Source: a virus (taxonomy: Duplodnaviria; Heunggongvirae; Uroviricota; Caudoviricetes). Taken from it: 45,879 nucleotides of DNA. The stretch is from IMG/VR virus record IMGVR_UViG_2541047916_000008. One strand, written 5' to 3'. A program made the position numbers and the translations under genes. Under the pieces are notes generated by a model. That model searched no databases and was not told the DNA's origin. It worked only from the letters and a program-made list of their open reading frames with translations. Shown here one piece after another: positions 771-7,866 of the stretch; position 1 is the stretch's first letter, and every line of letters starts with the position of its first letter.

Positions 771-1346
771 TCATAATTCTGTGCTGGTGGCAGGAATTAA
801 TTTCTGCCAGATAGCGGAAACATATTTTGCCTGATGACGGGCATCAGCCAGGGCGTTGTGCCGTTCGCCATCGAAAGGCATGTCCATTTTGGGGTCGAAT
901 CCGATGGAACGCCCAAGCGTAACGATCGTGCGTACATCGTGGTCATTCCAGTATGCCCACGGGCAGATTTGTCCTGCTCGCTCATAAGCTCCACGTAAAA
1001 TTACGTTGTCGAAGGTGGCTCCGTTACCCCAGACTTTTAAATATTTCGTATTGTCTGCGTGCCGGTTAATGAAATGATTTAGTTCTGAGAGAGCATCGCT
1101 GATCGACAAAGTATCATCAATACAGATTGCAGCTCGTGCTTCAGGGCTTTGTTTCAACCACCACAGGATGGTATCGCCGTCAGGTGTAGCTCCTAGCTTC
1201 ATAGCACTGTCCAGGCTAACAACCGTATAGAATTCTTGTCCGATGTCTCCGGTTTCTGGAGTGAAGAACACCGCGCCAATGGAAACGATCGGTGCATCCT
1301 TATTTTTCCCCATCGTCTCAAGGTCGATCATTAAGTTGTTCATCAC
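771..1346 (-). CDS. DEDDh/DnaQ-like 3'-5' exonuclease
   Basis: Track ORF; N-terminal IDLETMG (exo I motif), H..ALADA near C-terminus (exo III motif); ATGA overlap with upstream gene. Confidence 0.6.
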   Translation of the reverse strand: MMNNLMIDLETMGKNKDAPIVSIGAVFFTPETGDIGQEFYTVVSLDSAMKLGATPDGDTILWWLKQSPEARAAICIDDTLSISDALSELNHFINRHADNTKYLKVWGNGATFDNVILRGAYERAGQICPWAYWNDHDVRTIVTLGRSIGFDPKMDMPFDGERHNALADARHQAKYVSAIWQKLIPATSTEL

Positions 1347-3168: not shown

Positions 3169-3993
3169 TCAGGCGGTGAAAGTACCAATAAAGGTTTCTA
3201 CTTTGCTGTCTTTGAATTTCTCAACAAGCAGATCACGAAATTCGTTAGCCATTTCTTCCTGCACTGCTTCCAGCTGAATAATGCGCAGAACCAGTACAGG
3301 ACGATCGCCAGTGATAATGCTGAGGCGTAATTTAAATGGACGTTCTTTCAGACCTTCAAACGGAACGCATTTAAATTCAAATGCCACTGGCATAATATCT
3401 TTGGTCTTCGCTTCGACAGACTCCATCAGGGAGCGTTTGCCGCTGAAGTCATTATCTTCAAAATCAGCGGTCTGGTTTGCTTCAATCGTGATTTTACGGA
3501 CAGCCGCAGCCGCTTTTGTTGCCTGAATAGCGTCACCATTAGCATCAAAGCCCACAAGGTAGTCGGCCCAGTCTTCAATCCATTCTGCCAGTGACTTCTG
3601 GGAGTTACGCTCGCCATTAACAGACAACAGAGCAGAGAACGGTGCTGTCTTTTTCAGTTTGAGAGTGGCGGTGTTATCTGCGTGACCTGGTTCATCAATA
3701 GTACCCAGGTTAATCACACTGACGGCTCGCATATTATCGGCATCGATAAAGCAGCGGGTGCCTTCATCTGCAAGATCTTTAGAATAACGGGTAAAGTCAT
3801 CGATGCTGGCAGTGGAAAGCGCACCACGGAAACGGAAGCGATTTAAATTAAATTTCTCCAGATCATGAATGCGGAAATTCTCAGGCAATGCCACAGCATC
3901 GGCACCAATCTTACTGATAATTTCATTAACACCCTGAGCAGAAATAAGGGCATGGATTTGATTAATTGCGGTTGCGTCTAAGTTCTGAGACAT
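3169..3993 (-). CDS. YfdQ-like (DUF2303) phage protein, 274 aa
   Basis: Track ORF; GAGG RBS upstream of ATG; length and context (next to HD hydrolase and 120-aa genes) match the yfdP-yfdQ-yfdR-yfdS module of E. coli cryptic prophage CPS-53, from memory. Confidence 0.5.
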
Positions 3994-4058: not shown

Positions 4059-4421
4059 TTAATGACCTGCTGCGCGGAGTTTTCCGTCAGGTTCACCGGC
4101 AAGAGTCAGTAATTGTCCCTGGTCTTCCTGCAGAATAGTCAGGCGACCACCGCGATTGACATACATCGGCGTTTCGGTGGTGTCTTCTTCGGAAATTTTC
4201 CCGCGGTTAGTCGGGCGAACATATGAGAGTTTGTGTTTGATTTTCACACGGTTCTCATCAAATGGTTCGATTTCCAGGTTGAGCGAGACCTTACCTTTGG
4301 TTTTCGTGTTCATCACACCGGAAGCGACTTCACTGAGAACAGCGCCGATTTTGGTTTCAAATACGCCGCCGTCCAGCTCCCCGATAAATGCCTGCACATC
4401 AGTACTGCGTTCGCTAGCCAT
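4059..4421 (-). CDS. Hypothetical 120-aa early protein (YfdP-like); first gene of leftward operon
   Basis: Track ORF 4059..4652 trimmed to internal Met (MASERST) preceded by GAGGAG RBS; upstream part of track ORF overlaps RNA hairpins and looks non-coding. Confidence 0.5.
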   Translation of the reverse strand: MASERSTDVQAFIGELDGGVFETKIGAVLSEVASGVMNTKTKGKVSLNLEIEPFDENRVKIKHKLSYVRPTNRGKISEEDTTETPMYVNRGGRLTILQEDQGQLLTLAGEPDGKLRAAGH

Positions 4422-4469
4422 TTTGCTGCTCCTCATCATATCGACCCTGCAAGGTCGGTTGGTTTCTCC

Positions 4470-4558
4470 ACAAAACAGAGAAGAACACCTGCGGTGACTG
4501 CCGCCCGGATGGATTGGGTTATGAGCCCGTCGTCCGGTGATGCTCTTCTCTGTTTTGT
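4470..4558. repeat. Perfect 15-bp inverted repeat (acaaaacagagaaga / tcttctctgttttgt) separated by about 59 nt in the leader of the leftward operon
   Basis: Read directly from sequence; lies 50-130 nt upstream of the first early gene start. Confidence 0.6.
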
Positions 4559-4604
4559 AAAAAGAGCGGTACCAGCCGGAAGCAAGTGTACAAACTGGTA
4601 CCGC
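4557..4604 (-). terminator. Candidate intrinsic terminator in early-left leader (tL-like)
   Basis: 10-bp GC-rich stem gcggtaccag/ctggtaccgc with 19-nt loop; on the minus-strand transcript it is followed by UCUUUUU. Confidence 0.4.
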
Positions 4605-5029
4605 CAAAGCAGTGGCTGTTGTGGTGGGGTTGTCACTCAGGCGTATGGTCAACCTGACAATCCGGTGTCCTCAACGGGGAAAGAGTAACCCCGCCATACT
4701 TACCGCCGCGCCATTTCGCGGATTACCACAACGCTGAGAGCACTTAGCCAGTTACGGCACCACACTTTGTCGCGGTTCCATAAATGCCCTCATCGTTGCA
4801 CCCTGGTCTCTTCCCAGGCGTCAAACCGGATCGCCACGCTGGTTAGGCGTCTTATCAGCATCCTCATTGACTTGCACATTCCGGCTACCTGGTTTGTTTG
4901 CCCGAGCAAGGAGTGGATTGTCCCCTTTAACGTCCCCAGACCGCTAACGACGCATGTGCCATACGCCGTGTTACAACCAAATTTTGTTAGTACCTTGTTT
5001 GTAGGTCTGGAGAGAAAGATAAAATGAAG

Positions 5030-5067
5030 TTGCGCATTATGCAAGTGTTTTATTGCGAGATAAGCAA
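5030..5067. promoter_or_regulatory. OL-like operator pair (two 15-bp TTGCG-N6-GCAA sites) with presumed leftward promoter
   Basis: ttgcgcattatgcaa (5030-5044) and ttgcgagataagcaa (5053-5067), centres about 23 bp apart, just downstream of the repressor gene terminator. Confidence 0.5.
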
Positions 5068-5079
5068 TTTGGTGGGTAA

Positions 5080-5101
5080 TGAAAAGCCACCTTCTGGTGG
5101 C
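5080..5101 (-). terminator. Terminator of repressor gene
   Basis: gccacc-ttct-ggtggc hairpin; A-run on plus strand gives a U-run after the stem on the minus transcript; about 25 nt past the cI-like stop. Confidence 0.55.
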
Positions 5102-5123
5102 TAATTGATGTTGAGGTAGGGGG

Positions 5124-5816
5124 TTAATTGTGTCGCTTAAGGGTCTGTGACTGACTGATTAAGACCTTTCCAAAGACCATAAACCGGTGTTCGTTTTCGC
5201 TGGTAATTCCCCATTCGCGGTAAATCTGATTATCAGAAATTACCAGCAGTTTATCAGGTATCATTTGCAGTCGTTTGACGTAAATTTTATCATCAAAACC
5301 AAATACATATATACCATCCCCATCAAACTGATTGATACTGATATCAACGAAGATGAGATCTCCTGGCTCAATGGTTGGACACATACTGTCCCCACGAACG
5401 TTGATAACTTTAATGTGATTTGCTGGTCGTCCACCAAACATCGATACAGCATTATCAGTTCTGTATTCAATGGCATGAATCACATCAATGACATCACCGC
5501 CCTGGATAAGGCCATTTCCCGCACTGGCACTGACATCCAGCATTTCAATACGGAATACATCCTTCACCTGCGCAACATCCTCACTAATACTGTTTTTACA
5601 TACAGTATTACTTTTGAGGTCTGAGGTAAAGAGATCAGCAATATCAACACCTAAGCTCCTGGCAATATTACTCAGGGCTTGTTCAGTGAATTGTTTCTGC
5701 TTACCTGTTTCGAGGCGCGAGATATTCGCCGCATCCACTCCTATTGCTTCAGCGAGATCGGCGATTTTCATGTTCTTCGCCTGGCGAAGTTGTCTGACTC
5801 GATTTCCTATGTTCAT
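5124..5816 (-). CDS. CI-like prophage repressor (HTH_XRE N-terminal domain plus S24 LexA-like autopeptidase C-terminal domain)
   Basis: Track ORF; HTH motif IADLAEAIGVDAANISRLETG; C-terminal G-DSM...K motif of S24 peptidases; divergent from cro-like gene. Confidence 0.8.
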   Translation of the reverse strand: MNIGNRVRQLRQAKNMKIADLAEAIGVDAANISRLETGKQKQFTEQALSNIARSLGVDIADLFTSDLKSNTVCKNSISEDVAQVKDVFRIEMLDVSASAGNGLIQGGDVIDVIHAIEYRTDNAVSMFGGRPANHIKVINVRGDSMCPTIEPGDLIFVDISINQFDGDGIYVFGFDDKIYVKRLQMIPDKLLVISDNQIYREWGITSENEHRFMVFGKVLISQSQTLKRHN

Positions 5817-5836: not shown

Positions 5837-5878
5837 TTGCGCGTTAAGCAAATCAACTTGCGCAAAATATTTGCGTGA
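5837..5878. promoter_or_regulatory. OR-like operator region between repressor and cro
   Basis: ttgcgcgttaagcaa (5837-5851) matches the TTGCG-N6-GCAA motif seen at OL; further TTGCG half-sites at 5858 and 5871. Confidence 0.45.
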
Positions 5879-5913: not shown

Positions 5914-6174
5914 ATGCAATCACCATTACGGAATGTGCGTAAGGCGCACGGATTTACTTTGCAGCATGTTGCTGCGGGCGTTCAGGTCAATCCAGCGACG
6001 CTGAGTCGTATTGAAAGACTGGAACAAATTCCATCTATCGATCTTGCAGAACGTCTGGCCAATTTTTTTAAGGGTGAAATCAGCGAAATGCAGATTCTTT
6101 ATCCGGCACGTTTTCAATCTAGCCAAAACCAGAATGGGTTTAAACCACAGGAACAGGAGGTAAGCCGTGGGTAA
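5914..6174 (+). CDS. Cro-like HTH regulator
   Basis: Track ORF; GGAGG RBS; HTH FTLQHVAAGVQVNPATLSRIE; divergent from repressor. Confidence 0.65.
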   Translation: MQSPLRNVRKAHGFTLQHVAAGVQVNPATLSRIERLEQIPSIDLAERLANFFKGEISEMQILYPARFQSSQNQNGFKPQEQEVSRG

Positions 6175-6718
6175 GCATCATTGGAAAGTGGAAAAACAAC
6201 CTGAGTGGTACGTGAAAGCTGTCAGAAAAACTATCGCGGCATTGCCTGGGGGTTACGCTGAAGCTGCTGACTGGCTGGATGTAACAGAGAACGCTTTATT
6301 CAACCGCCTTCGTGCAGATGGCGATCAGATTTTCCCGCTGGGATGGGCAATGGTTTTACAGCGCGCGGCTGGCACTCACTACATTGCGGATGCTGTCGCA
6401 CAGTCTGCTGGTGGGGTGTTCGTATCGCTTCCTGAAATTGAGGAAGTAGAGAACGCCGATATAAACCAGCGCCTGCTGGAAGTCATCGAACAGATCGGGA
6501 ATTACTCAAAGCAGATTCGTTCGGCAATCGAAGATGGGGTCGTGGAGCCACACGAGCAGACAGCAATTAATGATGAGTTGTATCTGTCAATTTCGAAGCT
6601 CCAGGAGCATGCAGCACTGGTCTACAAAATCTTCTGCGCTCCAGAAAAGAGTGACGCCCGCGAGTGTGCAGCTCCGGGCGTCGTGGCGTTTTGTGTCTGT
6701 GGAGAAACTAACGCATGA
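6167..6718 (+). CDS. CII-like phage regulatory protein (CP76-type family), tentative
   Basis: Track ORF immediately after cro-like gene; size (about 180 aa) and position fit enterobacterial CII/CP76-family proteins; family assignment from memory. Confidence 0.4.
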   Translation: MGKHHWKVEKQPEWYVKAVRKTIAALPGGYAEAADWLDVTENALFNRLRADGDQIFPLGWAMVLQRAAGTHYIADAVAQSAGGVFVSLPEIEEVENADINQRLLEVIEQIGNYSKQIRSAIEDGVVEPHEQTAINDELYLSISKLQEHAALVYKIFCAPEKSDARECAAPGVVAFCVCGETNA

Positions 6719-6863
6719 ACAGTTTAACGGCAAATAACCGTTTGTCGCAACAGCTGGTGGTCAGTGTCGCTGAACACCTGTTGTTACGGTATGAATGCAG
6801 ATTACCAAATCACCTGGCTGTAAGTAACCACAGAGAACTTTACCTGACTGTGGGGGGCGAGTT

Positions 6864-7043
6864 GTGCAGGAACTTAACCGCTGGTTTCGTGACGGAAGAG
6901 GGCTTTATGTCCATGTTATTCGTTGGGAGCCAGAAACACAGCGCGTTATCTATCTTCGCAAAGACTACCCGCATGAGTGCTTTAGTCCTTTGTGGAAATT
7001 CAGGCATGATTTTGTTGAGTGTGAAGGACCACCAGCACATTGA
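6864..7043 (+). CDS. Small hypothetical ORF (59 aa, GTG start) not in the 60-aa track
   Basis: Own translation of the frame offset from the track ORF: VQELNRWFRDGRGLYVHVIRWEPETQRVIYLRKDYPHECFSPLWKFRHDFVECEGPPAH; G-rich RBS-like run upstream; terminator about 90 bp downstream. Confidence 0.3.
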   Translation: MQELNRWFRDGRGLYVHVIRWEPETQRVIYLRKDYPHECFSPLWKFRHDFVECEGPPAH

Positions 7044-7128
7044 TTCTGCCATTCCGGGACGTTACACTGTTCAGGCACCTTATAAAGCGGGTGCCGGGCG
7101 TGGAAACCCGGAATTCACCAAAGCGCAC

Positions 7129-7151
7129 AACCGCGCTCTTGCGGTTTTTTT
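7129..7151 (+). terminator. Rho-independent terminator inside the apparent N-terminal extension of the Rha ORF
   Basis: aaccgc-gctctt-gcggtt hairpin followed by T7. Confidence 0.55.
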
Positions 7152-7320
7152 GTGTAATGAGCAGCATTACGCCCAAATTATGGTGGGGCGTGCAGGGCCA
7201 ACTTCGGTTGGGCCGGGTTCTTTGGTGACCGGTATTTCCACCCCTGTACGTCTCACCACCAATAAGGTCGTGGAAAGCCTTGGTGGTGAGTTATTAAAAA
7301 TCACCAAAGAGGCTGCCATC

Positions 7321-7866
7321 ATGGCTACGATCCCAACCCTCACTCAACCTGAAATTGCCATCGTTGATGGTCAGGCTGTTACTTCATCCCTGGCTGTTGC
7401 CAACTTCTTCTCCAAACGTCATGACGATGTACTGAAAAAGATCCGCACGCTTGAATGCTCTGCATCATTCACTGCCCGCAATTTTTCGGTGAGTGATTAC
7501 ACCGATTGCACAGGCCGCAAACTACCTTGCTATCAAATAACCCGCGACGGCTTTGCGTTTCTTGCTATGGGGTTCACGGGTAAACGTGCTGCCCAGTTCA
7601 AAGAGGCATACATCAATGCCTTTAACCAGATGGAGAAACAGCTTTCAAATCCCTCTGTACTGAGCGACGTTGCACATAACGCCAGCGTTCTCTATTCCTA
7701 CATTTCATCAATTCATCAGGTCTGGCTGCAGCAGCTTTATCCTATGTTGGCAAAAGCCGAATCTCCGCTGGCTGTTAGCTTGTATGACTATATTAATGAT
7801 GCTTCGGCACTGGCCTGCCTCATAAATTTGTCGCTGAACCCTTCAGAGGTAAGGGGGCGCAAATGA
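7321..7866 (+). CDS. Rha-family phage regulatory protein
   Basis: Track ORF 6715..7866 trimmed to Met at 7321 (AGAGG RBS); N-terminal Phage_pRha-like segment (VDGQAVTSSLAVANFFSKRHDDVLKKIR). Confidence 0.6.
   Translation: MATIPTLTQPEIAIVDGQAVTSSLAVANFFSKRHDDVLKKIRTLECSASFTARNFSVSDYTDCTGRKLPCYQITRDGFAFLAMGFTGKRAAQFKEAYINAFNQMEKQLSNPSVLSDVAHNASVLYSYISSIHQVWLQQLYPMLAKAESPLAVSLYDYINDASALACLINLSLNPSEVRGRK

Follow-up and report, generated by a model that had tools for sequence, protein, structure and literature searches.

The closest described counterpart of the locus analysed here is the dicBF operon of the K-12 prophage Qin, which yields a terminated 1,146-nucleotide (nt) transcript and a read-through 1,608-nt transcript, has no internal promoter, and gives rise to a 190-nt DicF species through RNase III and to a 53-nt form through RNase E (PMC10448788); RNase III also makes a 72-nt form of DicF, cutting just beyond the terminator (PMC5069750). 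The locus itself is the leader of the leftward early operon, at positions 4422-5123 of a 45,879-nt stretch of viral DNA (IMG/VR record IMGVR_UViG_2541047916_000008, hereafter the window), a lambdoid prophage of the mEp460 / cdtI / SfV type that is identical to Escherichia phage PhiR40_1 over the leader region. It bears on a question posed in the literature, that of early-left expression in lambdoid phages without an N gene (PMC12315714): in this phage group the leader resembles the dicF locus, with a putatively leaky terminator and a probable RNase III site, and not the put or nut sites of antitermination.

Some 590 untranslated nt separate the leftward early promoter (PL) from the first gene of the operon, and a 611-nt stretch of the leader folds with z = -6.5. 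An earlier note on this DNA had described the interval as the structured, untranslated leader of the leftward early operon, a description that is borne out by folding and by the lack of conserved coding; the elements it listed (left operator and PL, a hairpin with a U-run, an inverted repeat and the first gene) are all present, to within a few bases. The earlier note makes no mention of two independent, widely conserved structured RNAs (modules A and B1) that take up ~350 nt upstream of the hairpin. In all, four conserved RNA modules, A, B1, T1 and H2/H3, make up the interval as a mosaic and lie between PL and a yfdP-like gene as follows:

5016-5044, minus strand: inferred PL, with -35 TTGCAT (5044-5039), a 17-nt spacer and -10 TATCTT (5021-5016)
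4802-4968, minus strand: core of module A, a conserved pseudoknotted RNA (81-sequence alignment)
4728-4799, minus strand: 3' extension of module A, termed P6 (from folding, -33.4 kcal/mol, z = -4.6)
4618-4732, minus strand: B1, closed by GUUGUGG/CCACAAC and homologous to K-12 Qin
4558-4612, minus strand: T1, a DicF-related Rho-independent terminator with a short single-stranded 5' part
4467-4561, minus strand: H2, a long hairpin with a 23-base-pair (bp) outer stem (4561-4539 with 4489-4467)
4442-4457, minus strand: H3, a small hairpin CGACCU-UGCA-GGGUCG between H2 and the ribosome-binding site (from folding)
4059-4421, minus strand: yfdP-like first early-left gene (ATG at 4421, 120 amino acids, Shine-Dalgarno sequence GAGGAG at 4434-4429; from the list of open reading frames, ORFs)

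The mosaic make-up is apparent in BLAST searches of phage records, in which the block 4606-4400 is found in SfV, SfII, SfIV and ST64B, the block 4732-4610 in Rac/Qin-like phages, and the block 4982-4726 in P1/P7 and epsilon15-like phages. Among 77 distinct leaders that precede an identical yfdP allele, sharp breakpoints fall at 4606/4607, 4626 and 4988/4997, the last being the boundary with other immunity types, just downstream of PL. No description of this leader was found in the literature on yfdP and antitermination or on STnc100.

The homology with Qin extends over B1 and into T1. Positions 4732-4610 are 89% identical over 123 nt (BLAST) to the K-12 Qin sequence immediately upstream of dicF, and the 190-nt DicF species has the length and the 5' end expected of B1 joined to DicF, B1 being the counterpart of its 5' part. 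B1 contains an inner pseudoknot in which GUAUGG/CCAUAC crosses UUGUCA/UGACAA, and both crossing helices show compensatory change in phage P1-type copies. Taken as a simple hairpin, B1 has a folding energy no better than that of shuffled sequences (z = -1.06), a poor score explained by the crossing helices, which the folding program cannot score. T1 in turn shares the position of DicF, directly after B1 in a repressor-controlled early operon (alignments with K-12 Qin and PPompW). Its 5' arm UUUGGCGGUACCAGUUUGUAC matches DicF UUUGGCGGUAUCAGUUUUAC, and the CCGCYCUUUUUA tails match too; in the alignment to the K-12 B1-dicF region a 19-nt gap removes the 5' seed of DicF, and the loop and 3' arm differ. 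As judged from these alignments, T1 is a relative of DicF by descent and position, and not a demonstrated equivalent.

A B1 domain 85% identical to that of E. coli was also seen at 1501-1616 of Actinobacillus phage vB_Apl-pPE4 (L289), recorded from Actinobacillus pleuropneumoniae. It lies in a DicA / YdaT / Kil / exonuclease VIII early region with the layout typical of E. coli Rac-like prophages, and is unexpectedly close for a match between bacterial families, unless the host was misassigned.

T1 folds into a 13-bp stem (4605-4593 with 4577-4565) with a 19-nt loop and the tail C-UUUUU-A (4564-4558), at -21.2 kcal/mol (z = -3.75), a stability attained by none of 200 shuffles. The GC-rich, terminator-like hairpin with a U-run that had been noticed on the minus strand is therefore real, at 4605-4558, and it is evolutionarily maintained: hairpin and U-run are kept in 10 of 12 leader clusters, and in ST64B the stem has been wholly replaced (GUCGGCGUC/GACGCCGAC), with full compensation and the same CUUUUUACA tail. 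Selection acts on T1 to keep its hairpin and U-run. Its loop, of 13-43 nt in relatives, exceeds the short loop (3-8 nt) of an efficient terminator, and this length fits partial termination; the terminator scan missed T1 because of the 19-nt loop. No other convincing intrinsic terminator was found on the minus strand between T1 and the end of the early-left genes.

The slot that B1 occupies here carries other cargo elsewhere, namely a transfer RNA (tRNA) gene, tRNA-Arg(UCU), in phiV10, a third type of domain (B3) in mEp460, and an STnc100-like domain (B2) in SfV, ST64B and phage P1. The B2 domains of ST64B, PPompW and phage P1 give sub-threshold STnc100 matches (33-39 bits against a gathering score of 47), and STnc100 (Rfam RF02076) has no match in the window. 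In phiV10, module A, tRNA-Arg and a T1-like terminator (GGCGGTGATGG...CTATCACCGCC-CTTTTTACAG) stand among structural genes. Since the arrangement A - slot - T1 recurs there, T1 closes a non-coding RNA unit; it belongs to a mobile non-coding RNA cassette that behaves as self-contained, and not specifically to the yfdP operon. The DicF precursor is modular: its 5' domain (B1), T1 as a terminator scaffold whose 5' sequences vary, and the slot with B1, STnc100-like or tRNA cargo have been exchanged among Qin, P1, epsilon15-like and lambdoid phages.

The perfect 15-bp inverted repeat with a 59-nt spacer, also reported in the earlier note, was recovered in full (4558-4544 pairs with 4484-4470, 15 of 15 bp) and is the core of the 23-bp outer stem of H2. 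H2 folds at -49.3 kcal/mol (z = -7.3); in an RNAalifold analysis of 13 diverse relatives its outer stem comprises 20 pairs, five of them compensated on both sides, and 21 distinct arm pairs were found. Both hairpins of the earlier note, in T1 and in H2, are thus far more stable than shuffles and show compensatory changes. The outer stem of H2 encloses a sequence-conserved inner hairpin (CCGGNCGACGGGCUCAUAACCCAAUCCAYCCGG) and a small variable one. At the position of H3, relatives have a hairpin of different sequence, GGCGGUGGCAACCCGCC in ST64B and GGCGGUGGCAGCCGCC in others, and H2/H3 are always found with yfdP. H2 may serve as an RNase III site, as a regulatory element of the yfdP 5' untranslated region, or as both.

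No N-like gene is present in the interval, in agreement with the earlier note: it contains neither a conserved ORF nor a small arginine-rich one. The accompanying remark that only very short ORFs occur holds for ATG ORFs, which reach at most 29 codons, and fails for mechanical ORFs of 66 codons (GTG, 4636-4436) and 39 codons (TTG, 4909-4790) downstream of the PL start, and for one of 84 codons that begins inside the operator and whose frame is open in 26 of 81 variants of the underlying RNA module. None of these leader ORFs, short or long, has a Shine-Dalgarno sequence. A 29-codon ORF (MCKSMRMLIRRL...), considered as a small N-like gene, was rejected, since it falls within conserved helices of module A, lacks a Shine-Dalgarno sequence and shows no conservation itself. 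In GenBank records, modules A, B1 and T1/H2 are nevertheless overlaid with annotated 'hypothetical proteins', most of them in the opposite orientation (mEp460_036 and mEp460_037 in L002, cdtI orf40 in L003, SfII_36 in L001; window 4422-5044). These are probably spurious, because the RNA structures covary and no frame is conserved.

An RNase III-processed leader, one of three options raised in the earlier note for early gene expression, gains support from the homology with dicBF. The reading that appears probable, though well short of certain, is that PL makes stable non-coding RNAs ending at a leaky T1, and that read-through RNA is cut by RNase III at H2. Transcription from near 5008 would first traverse module A (~240 nt), then B1, then T1, with B1 plus T1 corresponding to the 'long DicF' RNA (190 nt) that Qin makes from its dicBF operon. 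At T1, a leaky intrinsic terminator in this scheme, many transcripts would stop, leaving a leader RNA of ~450 nt; RNase III, cutting at the foot of the B1 stem, and RNase E may trim it into stable small RNAs. H2 would be present on the transcripts that read through. Its 23-bp duplex probably serves as an RNase III site, and a cut at H2 would separate the non-coding part from the yfdPQR message and shape the 5' end of that message. No N-like or put-like device would be required, and the leader RNA would be among the first transcribed on induction. What the analysis shows of this scheme are the sequence homologies, the maintained structures and the lack of N and put.

Several points weigh against this scheme. 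Partial termination and its efficiency, processing through RNase III as well as RNase E and the sites at which it would occur, and the stability of the RNAs are all modelled on dicBF. An efficient terminator would not usually have a loop as long as the 19 nt of T1, and the DicF model of Rfam (RF00039), which scores 76.7 bits on the PPompW phage, has no match to T1 at E <= 10, even when only 341 nt are searched. In a crude test, the energy of the duplex between T1 RNA and the ftsZ leader was no better than that of shuffles, and T1 as a functional equivalent of DicF on ftsZ is unsupported by that test. The seeds of DicF (its 5' end for xylR, its 3' region for ftsZ and pykA) were not found in T1, and a DicF-like role in trans is unproven because the 5' seed is deleted and pairing with ftsZ is no better than random. 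Finally, the scheme leaves the complexity and conservation of module A unexplained, and module A may affect transcription.

Module A spans ~240 nt in all and starts ~40 nt past the PL start. A search with a 16-nt core motif retrieved it from 120 viral contigs, with more than 100 distinct variants. Over the 81 aligned sequences, its five helices and one pseudoknot comprise 34 pairs, with 97.5% of cells paired, against 31-42% in a control in which the partners were slid by one to three columns. Thirteen of the 34 pairs change on both sides, and the covariation score of 0.272 compares with 0.114 for shuffled data, the observed value being reached by none of 500 shuffles. Helix P1 is a hairpin with the invariant loop UAUGGCACAUG, P2 is a long-range helix that closes a variable three-way junction, P4 is a 4-bp stem with a 7-nt loop, and the loop of P5 is GAAGAGA; in the pseudoknot, PK2, the P4 loop pairs with a downstream GGUK, with A-U in 21 sequences and C-G in 60. 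A candidate second pseudoknot would join GCACAU in the loop of helix P1 with AUGUGC, both strands being nearly invariant; the only two variants, from an independent search pattern, break the pairing.

The P6 extension, present in 59 of 104 variants, pairs GCAACG with CGUUGU and has a 7-bp acceptor-like stem (GAGGGCA/UGCUCUC) around a variable insert. The segment CGUUGUGG (4726-4733) can pair either with GCAACG of P6 (4794-4799) or with CCACAAC of B1 (4618-4624), the two being mutually exclusive; this could be a folding switch, or a mere mark of a processing site between module A and B1. In a Phytobacter sp. locus (L294) the P6 insert holds a perfect tRNA T-arm, GGGGTTCGATTCCCC, ~130 nt downstream of the module A core, and tRNA-like pieces were also seen in the insert of another relative (L193, 600-790), GGTTCAATTCC and GTTCGATTC. 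These pieces suggest that the region after the core is a decayed or alternative tRNA slot. Genes for tRNA adjoin module A in 42 of 123 loci, with tRNA-Arg(UCU) directly after it in 25 and tRNA-Ile(CAU) directly before it in 17, including phage P1, where module A lies between trnI and ban; the window contains neither tRNA nor tmRNA according to ARAGORN and the Rfam tRNA model.

Module A is widespread: it occurs in 34% of complete E. coli genomes (1,833 of 5,426), in phage P1, in epsilon15-like phages and many lambdoid prophages, and also in Klebsiella, Citrobacter, Enterobacter, Kosakonia, Kluyvera, Phytobacter and a candidate Erwinia species; as far as sampled, it is confined to Enterobacteriaceae and their phages. 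One complete copy with enterobacterial-type flanks was seen on a 1753-bp contig (L309) titled 'Bacillota bacterium' from a metagenome-assembled genome, probably a binning or contamination artefact. Positions 4968-4728 have no match at E <= 10 to the 4227 models of Rfam 15, and GenBank phage records and RefSeq E. coli genomes annotate nothing there but hypothetical ORFs on the opposite strand. With respect to the databases and genome records searched, module A is an undescribed family of pseudoknotted phage RNA, common and structurally well supported.

Two further motifs were observed near module A in relatives. A short conserved hairpin motif, CCACC-GAGCCUGA(A/U)G-UGGUG followed by AAAAGACAGGCA, immediately precedes module A or the B2 slot in L131, L135, L297, L302, L308 and other SfV-type leaders with extra small ORFs after PL. 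Strings resembling boxA follow module A in three relatives (L087, L030 and L044); in L087 (~3335-3400) a hairpin and a perfect rrn-type boxA, TGCTCTTTAACAA, come after the core, and a convergent membrane-protein gene is next. In some phages such a boxA may be a nut-like site of Nus-using phages.

Three other explanations of the leader were weighed against the leaky-terminator scheme, two of which invoke antitermination. Nascent module A and/or B1 might bind RNA polymerase and cause processive antitermination through T1 and later terminators, in the manner of HK022 put or the Bacillus EAR element while unrelated to them in sequence. As a second class of RNA-only antiterminator, module A would explain early-left expression in N-less phages of the yfdPQR type, an acknowledged puzzle among lambdoid phages; it is placed upstream of the terminator and close to the PL start, its elaboration and conservation go far beyond the needs of a passive leader, and the genes downstream of it are mutually unrelated (yfdP, ban, Sf6 gp66-like), as expected for a general elongation element. 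However, a covariance model built from HK022 putL and putR, which recovers both put sites (at 99 and 93 bits), gives no hit in 4422-5123 at E <= 10 when run with filters off, and none in four related leaders; nor is homology with put visible by eye. No leader segment recurs elsewhere in the window or in the rightward operon beyond chance 10-14-mers, and no twin site was found in the rightward (PR) operon. Put-like antitermination, as suggested in the earlier note, is unsupported because the model finds nothing and no module recurs in the window. Sister phages, moreover, carry the same T1-H2-yfdP unit without module A and with other cargo in the B slot; phage P1 has module A immediately ahead of ban, 2.3 kb downstream of Pban; its proximity to tRNA genes at about one third of loci suits a stable RNA; and Qin reads through the DicF terminator without any module A. 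Antitermination by the leader RNA is consequently considered unlikely. Very improbable is its protein-based form, in which an N analogue encoded elsewhere in the phage would recognise a site in the leader and modify RNA polymerase. Resemblance to boxA is seen in CGCUCUUUUUACAA at 4567-4554, and the perfect rrn-type boxA lies after module A in one relative, L087. However, the boxA-like string CGCUCUUUUU (4567-4558) is the 3' arm and tail of T1, and its reading as a boxA / Nus site was rejected because ST64B (GACCUUUUU) and other clusters keep the hairpin and U-run, not GCUCUUU. A conserved boxA of the CGCUCUUA type with a boxB hairpin was not found in the leader, which also has no small arginine-rich ORF; the first PL gene is yfdP-like, in place of one for a small arginine-rich N protein as in lambda, and Pfam finds no N-type domain in seven early-left proteins, cI, cro and the cII-like protein.

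The remaining explanation is a sensor in cis, whereby the level of yfdPQR might be tuned to a ligand, to temperature, or to a protein of phage or host, either through B1-T1 working as a riboswitch or an attenuator or through H2/H3 serving as a thermosensor or a protein-binding element. A conserved pseudoknot domain directly before an intrinsic terminator is the layout of an attenuator, and it occurs upstream of Qin dicB and P1 ban as well as after PL; the interior of H2 is conserved in sequence and not in pairing only, H2/H3 never occur apart from yfdP, and P6 and the closing stem of B1 compete for the GUUGU segment (4733-4726). In contrast, the slot before the same T1 may hold B1, the STnc100-like B2, B3 or a tRNA, a variability that makes a specific coupling of aptamer and platform unlikely; no alternative antiterminator pairing with the 5' arm of T1 was identified, and the leader has no Rfam riboswitch match. 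A sensor of this kind is likewise considered unlikely.

The regulatory setting of the leader is that of a lambdoid immunity region, with these features:

5030-5044 and 5053-5067: copies of the left operator (OL), TTGCGCATTATGCAA and TTGCGAGATAAGCAA, exact matches to TTGCG-N6-GCAA (pattern search)
5085-5102, minus strand: presumed terminator hairpin of cI, AGCCACC-AGAA-GGTGGCT then TTTTC, just after the cI stop codon (5124) (terminator scan)
5124-5816, minus strand: cI, with Peptidase_S24 and helix-turn-helix (HTH) domains (Pfam)
5914-6174: cro
6167-6718: gene for a CII/CP76 protein

The same type of 15-mer operator occurs at 5837-5851 (the right operator, OR), on the opposite side of cI from OL; in total, TTGCG-N6-GCAA has four exact matches in the window, three of which flank cI, the remaining one being at 7506-7520. 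The inferred PL overlaps the first operator, with an expected start near A5008 (read from the sequence). It is a weak match to the consensus, for which a stricter consensus promoter scan made no call; strong TTGACA promoters occur at this position in sister phages whose immunity regions are of other kinds. The hairpin at 5085-5102 is read as the terminator of the repressor gene, outside the PL transcript. Downstream, the yfdP-like product has no Pfam match (its RefSeq gene name is yfdP) and is followed by yfdQ (DUF2303) and then yfdR (YfbR-like HD), further early-left genes encoding a DUF551 protein, an Rv2179c-like exoribonuclease and a PrtN-like protein. The Rv2179c-like 3'-5' exoribonuclease gene (771-1346, minus strand, Pfam E = 3e-75) deserves mention in an operon whose leader is proposed to be a set of processed RNAs. 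On the plus strand, Rfam matches to isrK RNA (7075-7151, 67 bits) and, directly after it, C4 antisense RNA (7176-7263, 83.6 bits) sit within a mechanical 383-codon ORF (6715-7866), whose 3' part resembles the Rha/Ant antirepressor of related phages and whose 5' third is probably RNA rather than protein; 7075-7263 would be a P1-type immI (c4-ant) module in a lambdoid rightward operon.

Compared with known systems, module A is, like GOLLD, ROOL and the small stable RNAs in the tRNA cluster of T4, complex, conserved and often found beside tRNA genes, while it is much smaller than GOLLD and ROOL and has no Rfam match to either; its resemblance to tRNA-associated phage RNAs, and release by tRNA-processing enzymes, are presumed here as a lead only. 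As in HK022, an N-less lambdoid phage has a structured RNA just after PL and upstream of terminators. However, put is ~70 nt long with two stems, whereas the modules here measure 115-240 nt with pseudoknots, share no sequence or structure similarity with put and have no paired site in the right operon, where put has related copies after both PL and PR. Read-through at put needs no protein of the phage and depends on the zinc-binding domain in the beta' subunit of RNA polymerase. In the N leader of phage lambda an RNase III site lies after the early-left promoter region and ahead of the first gene's ribosome-binding site, and the leader described here has a long duplex in the same place; it differs from lambda nutL/N in having no N gene, no conserved boxA/boxB and no sequence relationship. 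Phage P1 offers a parallel in its ban operon, where the C1-controlled early promoter Pban is followed within ~45 nt by a B1-like domain and a terminator-type hairpin, and where an STnc100-like element, tRNA genes and module A (78% identical) are also present. It differs in the order and spacing of the modules, in the protein genes between them, in the sequence of the hairpin after B1 and in a module A without the P6 extension. Like the leader, the Qin dicF locus lies in an early operon under repressor control in a lambdoid element; the two share the B1 domain at 89% identity and, after it, a hairpin whose 5' arm and U-tail agree, a terminator that in Qin is leaky. The two loci differ in their surroundings, with dicB downstream in Qin and yfdP here, and ydfABC upstream in Qin and module A here; and where, in Qin, a perfect duplex of ~14 bp after the DicF terminator closes an STnc100-like domain and marks the place of the RNase III cut, the leader described here has H2.

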